Positions 32,216-43,759 of a stretch of DNA of 64,000 nucleotides are shown piece after piece; position 1 is the first letter of the stretch, and the number at the start of each line of letters is the position of its first letter. Location of the stretch: the NCBI RefSeq assembly GCF_988243305.1, contig NZ_OZ547136.1, one strand, 5' to 3'. The notes beneath the pieces are model-generated. The model saw only the letters and a program-made list of their open reading frames with translations, did not search any database and was not told where the DNA came from. The translations under genes and the position numbers were made by a program.

Positions 32216-32404
32216 GTTTCAGCGTCCCGCTGAAATCGTCGGCTTACCTCCTTTCGCCCTGAATGCAGTCTATCGCTAACGCGTGAACAAAATAGTTTCC
32301 TCTGTGATTATTGCGTAACGACTCGCAAAGAATATTTGCTGGCAGGATCGCAGACTGCAAAGCCTGCAGATTGACAATCTTATCGTGAAGGCATAATTTC
32401 AGGA

Positions 32405-32545
32405 GTGAGGGTAGAGCGGGGTTTCCCCCGCCCTGGTAGTCTTAGTATGCTGGGTAGCTAATCACTAAGAGCACCACGATGATGAGTAGCTTCATCATGA
32501 CCCTTTCCTTATTTATGGCCCCTTCCTCGGGAGGGGCTTTCCCGT
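32405..32545 (+). ncRNA. sibB: Sib antisense sRNA (antitoxin), copy 3
   Basis: Promoter ttgaca (32371-32376) and taattt (32394-32399); terminator hairpin ccccttcctcgggaggggcttt. Ends approximate. Confidence 0.55.
32442..32498 (-). CDS. ibsB: Ibs type I toxin peptide, copy 3 (18 aa)
   Basis: Minus-strand ORF MMKLLIIVVLLVISYPAY. Confidence 0.6.
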   Translation of the reverse strand: MMKLLIIVVLLVISYPAY

Positions 32546-32705
32546 TTCAGCGTCCCGCTGAAATCATCGGCTTACCTCCTTTCGCCATGCACGTAGTCTA
32601 TCGCTAACGCGTAGATAAAATAGTTTCATGTATTATTACTGGATGCGTGCTCGCAAATGTGCCCGCCATTCAGACGATTCCCGATAGTGTTTCATAATTC
32701 CTCCA

Positions 32706-32723
32706 TTTTTCTCCCTTATTGGC
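32706..32723 (+). promoter_or_regulatory. BaeR box upstream of mdtA
   Basis: tttttctcccttattggc matches the BaeR consensus TTTTTCTCCATDATTGGC at all but about two positions; about 55 nt upstream of the mdtA start. Confidence 0.7.
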
Positions 32724-32776
32724 TGGCTACACTAGTATCATTCCGCGAAACGTTTCAGGAAGAGAAACTCTTAACG

Positions 32777-34024
32777 ATGAAAGGCAGTTATAAATCCCGT
32801 TGGGTAATCGTAATCGTGGTGGTTATCGCCGCCATCGCCGCATTCTGGTTCTGGCAAGGCCGCAATGACTCCCGGAGTGCAGCCCCAGGGGCGACGAAAC
32901 AAGCGCAGCAATCGCCAGCGGGTGGTCGCCGTGGTATGCGTTCCGGCCCATTAGCCCCGGTTCAGGCGGCGACCGCCGTAGAACAGGCAGTTCCGCGTTA
33001 CCTCACCGGGCTTGGCACCATTACCGCCGCTAATACTGTTACGGTGCGCAGCCGCGTGGACGGTCAACTGATGGCGTTACATTTCCAGGAAGGCCAGCAG
33101 GTCAAAGCAGGCGATTTACTGGCAGAAATTGACCCAAGCCAGTTCAAAGTTGCATTAGCACAAGCCCAGGGCCAACTGGCAAAAGATAAAGCCACGCTTG
33201 CCAACGCCCGCCGTGACCTGGCGCGTTATCAGCAACTGGCAAAAACCAATCTCGTATCTCGTCAGGAACTGGATGCCCAACAAGCGCTGGTCAGTGAAAC
33301 CGAAGGCACCATTAAGGCTGATGAAGCAAGCGTCGCCAGCGCGCAGCTGCAACTCGACTGGAGCCGCATCACCGCACCAGTCGATGGTCGCGTTGGTCTC
33401 AAGCAGGTTGATGTTGGTAACCAAATCTCCAGTGGTGATACCACCGGGATTGTGGTGATCACCCAGACGCATCCTATCGATTTGCTCTTTACCCTGCCGG
33501 AAAGCGATATCGCTACCGTAGTACAGGCGCAAAAAGCCGGAAAACCGCTGGTTGTTGAAGCCTGGGATCGCACCAACTCGAAGAAATTAAGTGAAGGCAC
33601 GCTGTTAAGTCTCGATAACCAAATCGATGCCACTACCGGTACGATTAAAGTGAAAGCACGCTTTAATAATCAGGATGATGCGCTGTTTCCCAATCAGTTT
33701 GTTAACGCGCGTATGTTAGTCGACACCGAACAAAACGCCGTGGTGATCCCCACCGCCGCTCTGCAAATGGGCAACGAAGGCCATTTTGTCTGGGTGCTGA
33801 ATAGCGAAAACAAGGTCAGCAAACATCTGGTGACGCCGGGCATTCAGGACAGTCAGAAAGTGGTGATCCGCGCAGGTATTTCTGCGGGCGACCGCGTAGT
33901 GACGGATGGCATTGATCGCCTGACCGAAGGGGCGAAAGTGGAAGTGGTGGAAGCCCAGAGCGCCACCACTTCGGAAGAGAAAGCCACCAGCCGCGAATAC
34001 GCGAAAAAAGGAGCACGCTCCTGA
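32777..34024 (+). CDS. mdtA: Multidrug efflux RND membrane fusion (periplasmic adaptor) protein
   Basis: Track ORF is 455 aa; trimmed to [16 protein letters not shown]... (415 aa). Confidence 0.92.
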
Positions 34025-37000
34025 TGCAGGTGTTACCCCCGAGCAGCACAGGCGGCCCGTCGCGCCTGTTTATTATGCGTCCTGTCGCCACCACGCTGCT
34101 GATGGTGGCGATCTTACTCGCCGGGATTATCGGTTATCGAGCACTGCCCGTTTCGGCGCTACCGGAAGTGGACTATCCGACCATTCAGGTAGTCACGCTC
34201 TACCCAGGTGCGAGCCCGGATGTCATGACCTCTGCCGTTACCGCGCCGCTTGAACGCCAGTTTGGGCAGATGTCTGGCCTGAAACAGATGTCGTCGCAAA
34301 GTTCCGGCGGTGCGTCAGTTATCACCTTACAGTTCCAGCTAACATTACCGCTCGATGTCGCCGAGCAGGAAGTGCAGGCCGCGATTAACGCTGCGACCAA
34401 CTTGTTGCCGAGCGATCTGCCTAACCCGCCGGTTTACAGCAAAGTGAACCCGGCAGATCCACCAATCATGACGCTCGCCGTCACCTCAACCGCCATGCCA
34501 ATGACGCAAGTGGAAGATATGGTGGAAACCCGCGTCGCGCAGAAAATCTCGCAGATTTCCGGCGTCGGCCTGGTGACACTTTCCGGCGGTCAGCGTCCGG
34601 CTGTTCGCGTCAAACTTAACGCTCAGGCGATTGCCGCCCTCGGCCTGACCAGCGAAACCGTGCGCACCGCCATTACCGGCGCTAACGTCAACTCGGCAAA
34701 AGGTAGCCTCGACGGCCCTTCTCGTGCGGTTACGCTTTCCGCGAACGACCAGATGCAATCCGCCGAAGAGTATCGCCAGCTAATCATCGCCTACCAGAAC
34801 GGCGCACCGATTCGTCTGGGCGATGTCGCAACCGTAGAGCAAGGTGCAGAAAACAGCTGGCTTGGCGCATGGGCTAACAAAGAACAGGCCATTGTGATGA
34901 ATGTTCAGCGCCAGCCCGGTGCTAACATTATCTCCACCGCCGACAGCATCCGGCAGATGCTGCCACAACTCACCGAGAGTTTGCCGAAATCGGTAAAAGT
35001 GACGGTACTTTCTGACCGTACCACCAATATTCGCGCATCCGTCGATGATACTCAGTTTGAATTGATGATGGCTATCGCGCTGGTAGTCATGATTATCTAC
35101 CTGTTTTTGCGTAATATTCCGGCGACTATCATTCCCGGCGTCGCAGTGCCGCTGTCGTTAATCGGCACCTTCGCGGTCATGGTGTTTCTCGATTTTTCAA
35201 TCAATAACCTGACGCTGATGGCGTTAACTATCGCCACCGGATTTGTGGTCGATGACGCCATCGTGGTGATCGAAAACATTTCCCGCTATATCGAAAAAGG
35301 CGAAAAACCGTTGGCGGCGGCGCTCAAAGGCGCGGGTGAAATCGGCTTTACCATTATCTCGCTGACCTTCTCACTGATTGCAGTGTTGATCCCACTGCTA
35401 TTTATGGGCGATATCGTCGGGCGACTGTTCCGCGAATTTGCTATTACTCTGGCAGTCGCGATTTTGATCTCAGCCGTGGTGTCGCTGACTCTGACGCCGA
35501 TGATGTGCGCGCGGATGCTCAGCCAGGAGTCGCTGCGTAAACAGAATCGCTTCTCCCGAGCCTCGGAGAAAATGTTCGACAGGATAATCGCCGCCTATGG
35601 TCGTGGACTGGCGAAAGTGCTGAATCATCCGTGGCTGACCTTAAGCGTGGCACTCAGCACGCTGCTGCTTAGTGTTCTCTTGTGGGTATTCATTCCGAAA
35701 GGTTTCTTCCCGGTACAGGACAACGGCATTATTCAGGGCACTTTGCAGGCACCGCAATCCAGCTCCTTTGCCAATATGGCCCAGCGGCAACGCCAGGTCG
35801 CGGATGTGATTTTGCAGGATCCGGCAGTGCAAAGCCTGACCTCATTTGTTGGCGTTGATGGCACTAACCCGTCGCTGAACAGTGCGCGTTTGCAGATCAA
35901 CCTCAAACCACTGGATGAACGAGATGACCGGGTGCAAAAAGTCATCGCCCGTCTGCAAACGGCGGTGGATAAAGTGCCGGGCGTCGATCTCTTCCTGCAA
36001 CCAACGCAGGACCTGACCATCGATACTCAGGTCAGCCGCACCCAGTACCAGTTTACCTTGCAGGCCACGTCACTGGATGCGCTCAGTACCTGGGTGCCAC
36101 AGTTGATGGAAAAACTCCAGCAGCTGCCACAGCTTTCTGATGTCTCCAGCGACTGGCAGGACAAAGGGCTGGTGGCGTATGTCAATGTCGACAGGGACAG
36201 CGCCAGCCGTCTGGGGATCAGCATGGCGGATGTCGATAACGCCCTGTACAACGCGTTTGGTCAGCGACTGATTTCCACTATTTATACTCAGGCTAACCAG
36301 TATCGCGTGGTGCTGGAACACAACACCGAAAATACCCCAGGCCTCGCGGCGCTGGATACCATTCGCCTGACCAGCAGCGACGGTGGCGTGGTGCCGTTAA
36401 GCTCAATTGCCAAAATTGAGCAGCGTTTTGCGCCGCTTTCCATCAACCATCTGGATCAGTTCCCGGTAACGACTATCTCCTTTAACGTGCCGGATAACTA
36501 TTCGCTGGGCGATGCGGTGCAGGCGATTATGGACACAGAGAAGACGCTGAATCTGCCGGTGGATATCACCACGCAGTTCCAGGGCAGCACCCTCGCCTTC
36601 CAGTCGGCATTGGGCAGCACTGTCTGGCTGATTGTCGCGGCGGTGGTGGCGATGTATATCGTGCTCGGCATTCTGTACGAGAGCTTTATTCACCCGATCA
36701 CCATTCTCTCGACGCTACCCACCGCAGGGGTCGGCGCACTGCTGGCGTTAATGATTGCCGGTAGCGAGCTGGATGTGATTGCGATTATCGGCATTATTTT
36801 GCTGATCGGTATCGTGAAGAAGAACGCCATCATGATGATCGACTTCGCGCTGGCTGCTGAGCGCGAGCAAGGCATGTCGCCGCGCGAGGCAATCTACCAG
36901 GCTTGTCTGTTGCGTTTTCGTCCGATCCTGATGACCACTCTGGCGGCTCTGCTTGGCGCACTGCCGCTGATGTTGAGTACCGGGGTCGGCGCGGAACTGC

Positions 37001-37146
37001 GTCGTCCGTTAGGTATCGGCATGGTCGGCGGTCTGATTGTCAGCCAGGTGCTGACGCTGTTTACCACGCCTGTGATTTATTTGCTGTTCGACCGCCTGGC
37101 ATTGTGGACCAAAAGCCGCTTTGCTCGTCATGAAGAGGAGGCGTAA
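34024..37146 (+). CDS. mdtB: Multidrug efflux RND transporter permease subunit
   Basis: 1040-aa ORF, AcrB-type 12-TM RND pump; start overlaps the mdtA stop. Confidence 0.95.
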
Positions 37147-40100
37147 GTGAAGTTTTTTGCCCTCTTCATTTACCGCCCGGTGGCGACGATTTTACTGTCG
37201 GTCGCCATTACCCTGTGCGGCATACTGGGCTTCCGTATGCTGCCGGTCGCCCCACTGCCGCAGGTCGATTTTCCGGTGATTATGGTCAGCGCCTCGCTGC
37301 CCGGTGCGTCACCAGAAACAATGGCGTCTTCCGTTGCCACGCCGCTGGAACGTTCGCTTGGGCGCATTGCCGGGGTCAGTGAAATGACCTCCAGCAGTTC
37401 GCTCGGCAGCACGCGCATTATTTTGCAGTTTGATTTTGACCGCGATATCAACGGCGCAGCGCGCGATGTGCAAGCGGCGATCAACGCCGCGCAAAGTTTG
37501 CTGCCCAGCGGGATGCCCAGCCGTCCGACCTATCGCAAAGCGAACCCGTCGGATGCGCCAATTATGATCCTGACGCTAACATCCGATACTTATTCGCAAG
37601 GTGAACTGTACGATTTTGCCTCGACGCAGCTGGCTCCGACGATTTCGCAAATCGACGGTGTCGGTGATGTCGATGTTGGCGGCAGCTCGCTACCTGCGGT
37701 GCGCGTCGGGCTGAACCCGCAGGCGCTGTTTAATCAGGGCGTGTCGCTGGACGATGTGCGCACCGCCATCAGCAATGCCAACGTGCGTAAACCGCAGGGG
37801 GCGCTGGAAGATGATACTCACCGCTGGCAGATCCAGACTAACGATGAACTGAAAACCGCCGCTGAATATCAGCCGTTGATTATTCATTACAACAACGGCG
37901 GCGCGGTTCGTCTGGGCGATGTGGCGACGGTGACCGACTCTGTACAAGATGTACGTAACGCCGGGATGACCAACGCCAAACCGGCTATTTTGCTGATGAT
38001 CCGCAAGCTGCCGGAAGCCAATATAATCCAGACGGTTGACAGCATCCGGGCAAAATTACCGGAGTTGCAGGAGACCATTCCGGCGGCGATTGATCTGCAA
38101 ATTGCCCAGGATCGCTCCCCCACCATTCGCGCCTCGCTGGAAGAAGTCGAGCAAACGCTGATTATCTCGGTGGCGCTGGTGATTCTGGTGGTGTTTTTAT
38201 TCCTGCGCTCGGGTCGCGCCACTATTATTCCCGCCGTTGCGGTGCCGGTTTCGCTGATTGGTACGTTTGCGGCGATGTACCTGTGCGGATTCAGTCTCAA
38301 TAACCTGTCGTTAATGGCGCTCACTATTGCTACTGGTTTCGTGGTGGATGACGCCATCGTGGTGCTGGAAAACATTGCCCGTCACCTGGAAGCGGGGATA
38401 AAACCACTACAGGCCGCACTGCAAGGTACTCGCGAAGTCGGTTTTACGGTGCTGTCGATGAGTCTTTCACTGGTGGCGGTGTTTCTGCCGCTGCTGTTGA
38501 TGGGCGGATTGCCGGGCCGACTGTTACGCGAGTTTGCCGTGACGCTTTCTGTCGCCATTGGTATTTCGTTGCTGGTTTCCCTGACGCTAACGCCGATGAT
38601 GTGTGGCTGGATGCTGAAAGCCAGCAAGCCGCGCGAGCAAAAGCGACTGCGTGGTTTTGGTCGCATGTTGGTAGCCCTGCAACAAGGCTATGGCAAGTCG
38701 CTGAAATGGGTGCTCAATCATACCCGTCTGGTGGGCGTGGTGCTGCTTGGCACCATTGCGCTGAATATCTGGTTATATATCTCGATCCCGAAAACCTTCT
38801 TCCCGGAGCAGGATACCGGCGTCCTGATGGGTGGGATACAGGCGGATCAGAGTATTTCGTTTCAGGCAATGCGCGGTAAGTTGCAGGATTTTATGAAAAT
38901 TATCCGTGACGATCCGGCGGTGGATAATGTTACCGGCTTTACCGGCGGTTCGCGGGTGAACAGCGGGATGATGTTTATCACGCTGAAGCCACGCGGCGAA
39001 CGCAGCGAAACGGCGCAGCAAATTATCGACCGTCTGCGCGTGAAGCTGGCGAAAGAACCGGGGGCGAATCTGTTCCTGATGGCGGTACAGGATATTCGCG
39101 TTGGCGGACGTCAGTCGAACGCCAGCTACCAGTACACGTTGTTATCCGACGACCTGGCGGCACTGCGCGAATGGGAGCCGAAAATCCGCAAAAAACTGGC
39201 GACATTGCCGGAACTGGCGGACGTGAACTCCGACCAGCAGGATAACGGCGCGGAGATGAATCTGGTTTACGACCGCGACACCATGGCACGGCTGGGAATC
39301 GACGTGCAAGCCGCCAACAGTCTGTTAAATAACGCCTTCGGTCAGCGGCAAATCTCGACCATTTACCAGCCGATGAACCAGTATAAAGTGGTGATGGAAG
39401 TGGATCCGCGCTATACCCAGGACATCAGCGCGCTGGAAAAAATGTTCGTTATCAATAACGAAGGAAAAGCGATCCCGCTGTCGTATTTCGCTAAATGGCA
39501 ACCGGCGAATGCTCCGCTGTCGGTGAATCATCAGGGATTATCGGCAGCCTCGACCATCTCGTTCAACCTGCCGACCGGGAAATCGCTCTCGGACGCCAGT
39601 GCAGCGATCGATCGCGCAATGACCCAGCTTGGTGTGCCTTCGACGGTGCGCGGTAGTTTTGCCGGCACGGCGCAGGTGTTCCAGGAGACGATGAACTCGC
39701 AGGTGATCCTGATTATCGCCGCCATCGCCACGGTGTATATCGTGCTGGGTATCCTTTACGAGAGTTACGTACATCCGCTGACGATTCTCTCCACCCTGCC
39801 CTCGGCGGGCGTTGGAGCGCTGCTGGCGCTGGAGCTGTTCAATGCCCCGTTCAGCCTAATCGCCCTGATAGGGATCATGCTATTAATCGGCATCGTGAAG
39901 AAAAACGCCATTATGATGGTCGATTTTGCGCTTGAAGCCCAACGGCACGGTAACCTGACGCCGCAGGAAGCTATTTTCCAGGCCTGTCTGCTGCGTTTTC
40001 GCCCGATTATGATGACTACCCTGGCGGCGCTGTTTGGTGCGCTGCCGCTGGTATTGTCAGGCGGTGACGGCTCGGAGTTGCGGCAACCATTGGGGATCAC

Positions 40101-40224
40101 CATTGTCGGCGGTCTGGTCATGAGCCAGCTTCTGACGCTGTATACCACGCCGGTGGTGTATCTCTTTTTCGACCGTCTGCGGCTGCGTTTTTCGCGTAAA
40201 CCTAAACAAACGGTAACCGAGTAA
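37147..40224 (+). CDS. mdtC: Multidrug efflux RND transporter permease subunit
   Basis: 1025-aa ORF, paralogous to mdtB; immediately follows it. Confidence 0.95.
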
Positions 40225-41640
40225 ATGACAGATCTTCCCGACAGCACCCGCTGGCAATTGTGGATTGTGGCTTTCGGCTTCTTTATGCAGTCGCTGGACA
40301 CCACCATCGTTAACACCGCGCTTCCCTCAATGGCGCAAAGTCTCGGGGAAAGTCCGTTGCATATGCACATGGTCATTGTCTCTTATGTACTGACCGTGGC
40401 GGTGATGCTGCCCGCCAGCGGCTGGCTGGCGGACAAAGTCGGCGTGCGCAATATTTTCTTTACCGCCATCGTGCTGTTTACTCTCGGTTCACTGTTTTGC
40501 GCGCTTTCCGGCACGCTGAACGAACTGTTGCTGGCACGCGCGTTACAGGGCGTTGGCGGTGCGATGATGGTGCCGGTCGGCAGGTTGACGGTGATGAAAA
40601 TCGTACCGCGCGAGCAATATATGGCGGCGATGACCTTTGTCACGTTACCCGGTCAGGTCGGGCCGCTGCTCGGTCCGGCGCTCGGCGGCCTGCTGGTGGA
40701 GTACGCCTCCTGGCACTGGATCTTTTTGATCAACATTCCGGTGGGGATTATCGGTGCGATCGCCACACTGATGTTAATGCCGAACTACACCATGCAGACG
40801 CGGCGCTTTGATCTCTTCGGCTTTTTATTGCTGGCGGTTGGCATGGCGGTATTAACCCTGGCGCTGGACGGCAGTAAAGGTACAGGTTTATCGCCGCTGG
40901 CGATTGCTGGCCTGGTCGCAGTTGGCGTGGTAGCACTGGTGCTTTATCTGCTGCACGCCAGAAATAACAACCGCGCTCTTTTCAGTCTGAAACTGTTCCG
41001 TACTCGTACCTTTTCGCTGGGCCTGGCGGGGAGTTTTGCCGGACGTATCGGTAGCGGCATGTTGCCCTTTATGACGCCGGTTTTCCTGCAAATTGGCCTT
41101 GGCTTCTCACCGTTTCATGCCGGACTGATGATGATCCCGATGGTGCTCGGCAGCATGGGGATGAAGCGAATTGTGGTACAGGTGGTGAATCGCTTTGGTT
41201 ATCGTCGGGTACTGGTGGCGACCACGCTGGGTCTGTCGCTGGTCACCCTGTTGTTTATGACTACCGCCCTGCTGGGCTGGTACTACGTTTTGCCGTTCGT
41301 CCTGTTTTTACAAGGGATGGTCAACTCGACGCGTTTCTCCTCCATGAACACCCTGACGCTGAAAGATCTCCCGGACAATCTGGCGAGCAGCGGAAACAGC
41401 CTGCTGTCGATGATTATGCAATTGTCGATGAGTATCGGCGTCACCATCGCCGGGCTGTTGCTGGGACTTTTTGGTTCGCAGCATGTCAGCGTCGACAGCG
41501 GCACCACACAAACCGTCTTTATGTACACCTGGCTTAGCATGGCGTTTATCATTGCCCTTCCGGCGTTCATCTTTGCCAGAGTGCCGAACGATACGCATCA
41601 AAATGTAGCTATTTCGCGGCGAAAAAGGAGCGCGCAATGA
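40225..41640 (+). CDS. mdtD: MFS transporter
   Basis: 471-aa polytopic ORF. Confidence 0.92.
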
Positions 41641-43040
41641 AGTTCTGGCGACCCGGTATTACCGGCAAACTGTTTCTGGCGATTTTCGCCACCTGCATTG
41701 TCTTGCTGATCAGTATGCACTGGGCGGTGCGTATCAGTTTTGAGCGTGGCTTTATTGATTACATCAAACACGGCAATGAACAGCGATTACAGCTGTTAAG
41801 TGATGCGCTTGGCGAGCAGTATGCGCAGCATGGCAACTGGCGCTTCCTGCGCAACAACGATCGCTTTGTCTTTCAGATCCTGCGTTCATTTGAACACGAT
41901 AATTCGGAAGATAAACCCGGCCCGGGTATGCCTCCGCACGGCTGGCGTACTCAGTTCTGGGTGATCGATCAAAACAACAAAGTGCTGGTTGGTCCGCGAG
42001 CGCCGATTCCACCTGACGGTACACGGCGACCCATTCTGGTCAACGGTGCGGAAGTGGGTGCGGTGATTGCCTCCCCTGTTGAGCGACTGACCCGCAATAC
42101 TGATATCAATTTCGATAAACAACAGCGGCAAACCAGCTGGCTGATTGTCGCCCTGGCTACGTTACTCGCGGCACTCGCCACCTTTCTGCTGGCGCGTGGT
42201 CTGTTGGCCCCGGTCAAACGGCTGGTGGACGGCACGCACAAACTGGCGGCGGGCGATTTCACTACCCGCGTGACACCCACCAGTGAAGATGAACTGGGCA
42301 AACTGGCGCAAGACTTCAACCAGCTTGCCAGCACGCTGGAGAAAAACCAGCAAATGCGGCGCGATTTTATGGCCGATATTTCTCACGAACTGCGTACGCC
42401 ATTAGCGGTGCTGCGCGGTGAACTGGAAGCCATTCAGGATGGCGTGCGTAAATTCACGCCGGAGACGGTGGCGTCTTTACAGGCGGAGGTCGGTACACTG
42501 ACCAAACTGGTTGACGATCTCCATCAGTTGTCGATGTCTGATGAAGGCGCTCTCGCCTATCAAAAAGCACCGGTAGATTTGATCCCACTGCTGGAAGTGG
42601 CGGGCGGCGCATTTCGCGAACGATTCGCCAGCCGTGGCCTGAAACTGCAATTTTCCCTGCCAGACAGTATTACCGTATTTGGCGATCGCGACCGTTTAAT
42701 GCAGTTATTCAATAACTTACTGGAAAACAGCCTGCGCTACACTGACAGCGGCGGTAGCCTGAAAATCTCTGCCGAGCAGCACGACAAAACGGTGCGACTG
42801 ACCTTTGCCGACAGCGCGCCGGGCGTCAGTGACGATCAGCTACAAAAATTGTTTGAACGTTTTTATCGCACCGAAGGTTCCCGCAACCGAGCCAGCGGCG
42901 GTTCCGGGCTGGGGCTGGCGATTTGCCTGAACATTGTTGAAGCACATAATGGTCGCATTATTGCTGCCCATTCGCCTTTTGGCGGGGTAAGCATTACAGT
43001 AGAGTTACCGCTGGAACGGGATTTACAGAGAGAAGTATGA
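41637..43040 (+). CDS. baeS: Envelope-stress sensor histidine kinase
   Basis: 467 aa; HAMP domain, H-box SHELRTPL and ATPase G-box GGSGLGLAI; 4-bp overlap with mdtD. Confidence 0.95.
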
Positions 43041-43759
43041 CCGAGTTACCAATCGACGAAAACACACCGCGTATTTTGATCGTGGAAGATGAACCGAAGC
43101 TGGGGCAGTTACTCATTGATTATCTGCGTGCTGCGAGCTATGCGCCAACGTTGATTAGCCACGGCGATCAGGTACTGCCATATGTACGCCAGACACCACC
43201 GGATCTGATTCTGTTGGATCTTATGCTTCCTGGCACCGATGGCCTGACGCTGTGCCGGGAGATTCGTCGTTTTTCTGACATTCCGATCGTGATGGTGACA
43301 GCAAAAATCGAAGAGATCGACCGCCTGCTGGGGCTGGAAATTGGCGCAGATGACTACATCTGCAAACCGTACAGCCCACGGGAAGTGGTAGCGCGCGTCA
43401 AAACCATTTTGCGCCGTTGCAAACCGCAACGCGAACTTCAGCAACAGGATGCCGAAAGCCCGTTGATTATCGACGAAGGTCGTTTTCAGGCTTCATGGCG
43501 CGGTAAAATGCTTGACCTGACGCCTGCGGAATTTCGTCTGTTGAAAACGCTCTCTCATGAACCAGGAAAAGTGTTCTCCCGCGAGCAATTGCTCAATCAT
43601 CTTTATGACGACTACCGCGTAGTAACCGACCGCACCATCGACAGCCACATTAAAAACCTGCGTCGCAAGCTGGAATCTCTCGACGCCGAACAGTCCTTTA
43701 TCCGTGCCGTTTACGGCGTCGGTTACCGCTGGGAAGCCGACGCCTGCCGCATCGTTTAA
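43037..43759 (+). CDS. baeR: OmpR-family response regulator
   Basis: 240 aa; receiver domain with IVEDEP...DLMLPG and winged-helix C-terminus; 4-bp overlap with baeS. Confidence 0.95.

Follow-up and report, generated by a model that had tools for sequence, protein, structure and literature searches.

The 18-mer TTTTTCTCCCTTATTGGC, found at positions 32706-32723 (+ strand) of an E. coli-lineage chromosome, very probably belongs to the BaeR operator of the mdtABCD-baeSR promoter, and this is the best explanation of the evidence assembled here. It is the already known BaeR site of the mdtA promoter, seen in a strain other than K-12. The sole addition to this known site is a refinement of its boundary: the site probably consists of three phased repeats whose deeply conserved part lies largely outside 32706-32723. 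All coordinates refer to the window, that is, the whole 64-kb stretch of DNA that was analyzed, and the features are collected in Table 1.

Table 1. Features of the mdtA promoter and of the mdtABCD-baeSR operon, with information content from the phylogenetic footprint
Feature	Position	Strand	Basis or description	Information content
BaeR box, 18-mer TTTTTCTCCCTTATTGGC	32706..32723	+	Consensus match, rarity, spy/acrD alignment	
Repeat R1, GTTTCATAATT	32689..32699	+	8/11 to spy unit TCTCCATAATT	1.51 bits
Repeat R2, CCTCCATTTTT	32700..32710	+	8/11 to spy unit; CTNCA core; most conserved element	1.88 bits
Repeat R3, TCTCCCTTATT	32710..32720	+	9/11 to spy unit	
R3 (non-shared part)	32711-32720	+		0.52 bits
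GGC	32721-32723	+		0.57 bits
Invariant -10 region, TAcACTAGTATCAT	32728..32741	+	Footprint	
-10 region as scored in the footprint	32727-32742	+		1.87 bits
Far-upstream background	32660-32667	.		0.31 bits
ChIP-exo peak_5	32692..32728	.	K-12 2153931-2153967; S/N 10.96; PMC7657598 Data Set S2, mapped via identical sequence	
ChIP-exo peak_6	32733..32759	.	K-12 2153972-2153998; S/N 14.99; over the -10 and start region	
mdtA	32777..34024	+	415 aa, membrane-fusion subunit; NF008589, 722.9 bits (cut-off 391)	
mdtB	34024..37146	+	NCBIfam model above cut-off	
mdtC	37147..40224	+	NCBIfam model above cut-off	
mdtD (iceT)	40225..41640	+	NCBIfam model above cut-off	
baeS	41637..43040	+	Sensor kinase; NCBIfam model above cut-off; 4-nt overlap with mdtD	
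baeR	43037..43759	+	OmpR/PhoB-family response regulator; NF007982, 450.5 bits (cut-off 380)	

The initial annotation described a near-consensus BaeR sequence upstream of mdtA, and the interval does match the BaeR consensus TTTTTCTCCATDATTGGC (which PMC3799227 and PMC3915751 credit to Nishino et al. 2005) at 17 of 18 positions, the sole mismatch being C for A at position 10. A search of both strands of the window for TTTTTCTCCATDATTGGC with up to three mismatches returns this single match, where 0.17 are expected from shuffles. Given the base composition and counting both strands, matches with at most one mismatch are expected 2.4e-4 times per 64 kb and 5e-7 times in the 263-nt spacer between sib and mdtA. 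The box lies on the + strand in the same orientation as mdtA, with a gap of 53 nt between its end and the mdtA ATG (32777). Alignment with the boxes at spy and acrD, which had been proposed as a check, requires no gaps: the K-12 spy box TTTTTCTCCATAATTGGC is identical at 16 of 18 positions and the K-12 acrD box TTTTTCTCCACGATTGGC at 15 of 18. The hexamer ATTGGC is identical at these three unrelated E. coli promoters (mdtA, spy, and acrD). The consensus reportedly goes back to the promoters of mdtA, spy, and acrD, hence in part to the present site, so that the 17/18 match is partly circular and independent evidence for a BaeR site is needed.

That the interval is a chance match with no function has one point in its favor, the frequency of short T-rich motifs in intergenic DNA. 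Against it stand the expectation of only 2.4e-4 such matches per window, an exact position and orientation relative to mdtA that are the same as in K-12, the conservation of the surrounding block throughout E. coli, and BaeR occupancy of the K-12 counterpart in ChIP-exo experiments (see below). A chance match is thus ruled out. From 32690 to the ATG, the promoter is base-for-base that of K-12 MG1655, which has the same 18-mer at the same 53-nt distance from mdtA. Among complete E. coli genomes, 5416 contain the 60-bp block 32686-32745, once each, and in 5279 of these the identity reaches 99% or more; RefSeq gives the block no annotation in these genomes.

The BaeR box of K-12 mdtA (yegM) is accordingly the same element in another strain, sharing the 18-mer, its distance, the promoter, and the operon. 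The box itself does not differ, whereas upstream the window has three Sib/Ibs modules and K-12 has two. Just beyond the identical stretch, the window departs from K-12 by substitutions at 32682 and 32685, and 9 differences are found in 290 bp around the mdtA promoter. Over 32300-33300, no complete RefSeq E. coli genome exceeds about 99% identity to the window, and the MdtA protein of the window is 98% identical to that of several Escherichia species representatives.

Downstream of the box, six open reading frames in the order mdtA-mdtB-mdtC-mdtD-baeS-baeR abut or overlap (the baeR start overlaps the baeS end by 4 nt), and all six score above the curated NCBIfam cut-offs for MdtA, MdtB, MdtC, MdtD, BaeS, and BaeR. 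The site therefore does precede an mdtABCD-baeSR operon, as first annotated, and the operon is complete, with BaeR encoded last. The cognate winged-helix regulator is present as the BaeR equivalog NF007982. E. coli chromosomes with the annotated order yegL - ibs/sib - mdtA match this region. On the + strand, the yegL-mdtA interval holds three copies of the SIB_RNA antitoxin (RF00113; 31708-31856, 32043-32185, and 32371-32513), each presumably paired with an antisense ibs toxin ORF. K-12 carries two copies at this place, sibA/ibsA and sibB/ibsB; three are common in E. coli genomes, for example O157:H7 TR01, and represent a known copy-number polymorphism.

The ATG at 32777 is conserved in 100% of the aligned promoters (79 distinct Enterobacteriaceae sequences). 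An in-frame ATG at 32657 would open a 455-aa ORF, 40 codons longer, with the BaeR site falling within the coding region. This start was rejected, and 32777 was accepted as the real one, because the upstream ATG is not conserved and the indels there are not multiples of three. The 5'-untranslated region contains a nearly invariant block, GTTTCAGGAwGAGA (32752-32765), which ends 11 nt ahead of the ATG. Shine-Dalgarno sequences typically lie closer to the start codon, and the block may thus serve for more than ribosome binding.

Evidence that BaeR acts at this promoter comes from K-12, where ChIP-exo peaks of BaeR are found upstream of mdtA (PMC7657598). Identical sequence fixes the offset that places these K-12 peaks on the window. 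Peak_5 spans the full 18-mer and 14 bp upstream of it, where the window has the K-12 sequence; its center, 32710, is the R2/R3 junction, and the peak is symmetric about R2 and R3. Peak_6 is probably a footprint associated with RNA polymerase. Under ethanol stress, mdtA, mdtB, mdtC, iceT, and baeS are all down by log2 3.4-4.6 in a baeR knockout (log2 fold change -4.0 for mdtA and -4.6 for baeS), a decrease from mdtA to baeS of ~10- to 25-fold by RNA-seq; without induction, the same five genes are unchanged in the knockout (PMC7657598). The K-12 occupancy and expression data support an activator-dependent promoter and autoregulation. The autoregulated control claimed at the outset thus agrees with both a ChIP-exo peak on an identical promoter and the drop of baeS in the baeR knockout. 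Purified BaeR has reportedly already been shown to bind the site directly in E. coli. Further papers term the mdtA site a reported or well-characterized BaeR site.

It is highly improbable that the conserved block is instead the target of CpxR or of some unnamed factor, with BaeR affecting mdtA only indirectly. CpxR also regulates mdtA according to cited papers (RegulonDB list), and the sequence immediately upstream, at 32671-32685, is another conserved direct repeat (CAGAC-N5-CAGAC in K-12). However, 32515-32776 contains no GTAAA-N5-GTAAA with two or fewer mismatches, the site carries a BaeR ChIP-exo peak, and in Erwinia BaeR both shifts and induces the mdtABC promoter, whereas CpxR does neither. 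Action of another regulator at the block is therefore unlikely. Over the whole window, GTAAANNNNNGTAAA with up to two mismatches occurs 74 times against 46 expected, a count reached by 0 of 100 shuffles; this excess is probably a compositional or codon effect rather than a set of CpxR sites.

The architecture of the BaeR site was approached by scoring each 11-mer of the window with the spy unit TCTCCATAATT, a reference not derived from mdtA, at a threshold of at least 8 of 11 positions. Upstream of mdtA, only R1, R2, and R3 reach this threshold, and their starts (32689, 32700, and 32710) follow one another in steps of 11 and 10 bp. No other phased pair or triple exists on either strand of the 64 kb, and 300 shuffles yielded 0 triples. 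The 18-mer is made up of the T-tract of R2, repeat R3, and GGC. Units are also seen at the other two promoters: acrD has the same kind of pair, 11 bp apart, ACTCCTTTTTT and TCTCCACGATT, and spy has TCTCCATCAAA and TCTCCATAATT, 22 bp apart. A distal spy pair, TCTTCATAATC and TCTGCAAAATC, consists of two perfect units of the direct-repeat box TCTNCANAA, which PMC3799227 describes at the spy promoter and credits to Yamamoto et al. 2008. R1, R2, and R3 match TCTNCANAA at 5, 4, and 5 of its 7 specified positions, with 11 + 10 bp phasing. The two promoters share the 10-11-bp phasing and the register of their direct repeats, and a TnCA core appears to be common to them; they differ in that the mdtA repeats adjoin the core promoter, whereas the spy repeats lie well upstream of it.

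At spy, ChIP-exo peak_2 coincides with the distal TCTNCANAA tandem pair (K-12 1825823-1825847). The spy peaks fall on this pair and on the core promoter, and the spy 18-mer is under no called peak. No BaeR ChIP-exo peak is reported at acrD (PMC7657598). With the spy peaks off the 18-mer and no peak at acrD, the 18-mer on its own is a putative rather than an established unit of contact. The spy 18-mer is the box that gives the consensus its perfect match, yet it lies outside the published BaeR ChIP-exo peaks. ATTGGC is kept at spy in Salmonella and Citrobacter, where the region is 85% identical overall; this comparison covers the Salmonella and two Citrobacter promoters only and at that identity has little power.

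Conservation across the family was assessed from 80 mdtA loci in species-representative Enterobacteriaceae genomes, taking 150 bp upstream of the ATG (79 distinct sequences) and expressing the result as genus-weighted information content over 25 genus labels. Across these labels, almost no variation is seen in R1, R2, or the -10 block. Spacing within 32690-32742 is constant in 78 of the 79 sequences, with the -10 at a fixed distance from R2. Conservation within the 18-mer is uneven, at 1.88 bits for the first five bases and 0.53 bits for the thirteen that follow, against a background of 0.31. The complete 18-mer is kept in Escherichia only; Citrobacter has TTTTTCTCCCTTGTTCGC-like forms, and other genera have unrelated sequence at the R3 position, such as TCCGCTGTGTT. 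R3 and GGC together make up thirteen of the 18 nt; outside Escherichia and Citrobacter they are not retained, and their conservation there does not exceed background. R3 scores 4.4/11 on average in 57 promoters from other genera, where a common form of R1 is CTTyCATATTT and R1 and R2 match each other at 7.6/11, as in CTTCCATATTT and CCTCCATTTTT. The CTNCA core (described in PMC3799227) is present in R2 in 79/79 promoters and in R3 in 0/79. The 18-mer is therefore neither the whole operator nor its most conserved part, and deep conservation lies mostly at 32689-32710.

Just upstream of the BaeR repeats is a moderately conserved block, aTTCAGACnaTTCCaGACAGT (32668-32688; 1.21 bits). Its K-12 counterpart contains the direct repeat CAGAC-gattc-CAGAC with 10-bp phasing. 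The strain of the window has two substitutions in the second CAGAC unit (32682 C and 32685 T).

Two readings of this uneven conservation can be weighed. Tentatively, the 18-mer may be a lineage-specific composite, in which the ancestral operator, common to the whole family, is TTyCATAwTT plus CCTCCATTTTT (32689-32710) and R3/ATTGGC is an Escherichia-Citrobacter addition that puts BaeR one helical turn nearer the -10. It is rather unlikely that R1-R2 (32689-32710) is the real ancestral BaeR contact and that the 3' 13 nt, TCCCTTATTGGC, are a spacer resembling spy and acrD in Escherichia, in which case the marked interval would be displaced about 10-17 bp from the functional core. The information content of R1 and R2 (1.51 and 1.88 bits, compared with 0.52 for R3), the confinement of CTNCA to R2 in comparison with R3, the closer R1/R2 tandem of the other genera, and the spy ChIP-exo peak that falls on the TCTNCANAA tandem pair and off the 18-mer all point to such a core. 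On the other hand, no other repeat of the E. coli promoter matches the spy unit as well as R3 does (9/11), and the K-12 peak, centered at 32710 and reaching 32728, is symmetric about R2 and R3 rather than about R1 and R2. The sharing of ATTGGC by three unrelated E. coli promoters, together with its conservation at spy in Salmonella and Citrobacter, likewise suggests a role for the hexamer in this lineage.

The core promoter downstream of the repeats has two -10 candidates, TACACT (32728-32733) and TATCAT (32736-32741), whose key positions are kept across the aligned species. A third, TAGTAT (32733-32738), was rejected because three Escherichia species and one Citrobacter have lost its final T. 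The two retained candidates would put a -35 element within 32704-32718, which contains no TTGACA-like hexamer, and inspection of the sequence finds no -35-like hexamer 16-18 bp upstream of either. A scan for promoters also returned TTCAGA-18-CATAAT (32669-32698), upstream of the box. This candidate was rejected because the count is at chance level (1 found, 1.6 expected) and because it would leave the activator site downstream of the transcription start. The -10 candidates would place the start of transcription near 32740-32748; a literature search that stopped short of the primary mdtA promoter papers found no mdtA start site.

OmpR/PhoB-family regulators bind in head-to-tail orientation to direct repeats spaced by one helical turn. 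Most likely, phosphorylated BaeR, a winged-helix regulator of this type, binds the phased 10-11-bp repeats of the mdtA promoter in the same head-to-tail fashion. The repeat type would be nCTCCAtnaTT, with a register that places units at 32689 (R1), 32700 (R2), and 32710 (R3). In E. coli, the BaeR dimer would occupy R2 and R3, a placement suggested by the ChIP-exo peak that is symmetric about their junction. R1 may provide an additional or alternative half-site, and R1 and R2 together may serve the genera that have no R3. The repeats appear to take the place of the -35 element at a fixed distance from the invariant -10, as in a class-II-like geometry, and bound BaeR would replace the missing -35 contact and recruit RNA polymerase to an otherwise silent promoter. 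Transcription would then run from mdtA through mdtB, mdtC, mdtD, and baeS to baeR, resulting in positive autoregulation.

This arrangement resembles the Pho box and other OmpR/PhoB-type operators as known for the family, in which tandem 11-bp repeats replace the -35 element. Like them, the mdtA promoter has tandem direct repeats spaced by one helical turn, each unit T/A-rich in its second half, no recognizable -35 hexamer, a fixed distance to the -10, and strict activator dependence. It differs from the Pho box type in the sequence of its repeats and in the number of candidate units, three instead of two or four.

Through this site, envelope stress sensed by BaeS/BaeR is coupled to expression of the MdtABC efflux pump and of the regulator itself. 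This circuit is well established, and another instance from the E. coli lineage adds nothing new to it. The 18-mer is widely used for BaeR prediction; at its own founding promoter, deep conservation is found only in its first five bases. The conserved unit is the phased 11-bp repeat, which is relevant to prediction of the BaeR regulon outside Escherichia. If the 18-mer is indeed a lineage-specific composite, searches that use it would overlook BaeR sites, or place them wrongly, in most Enterobacteriaceae, and possibly at spy as well.
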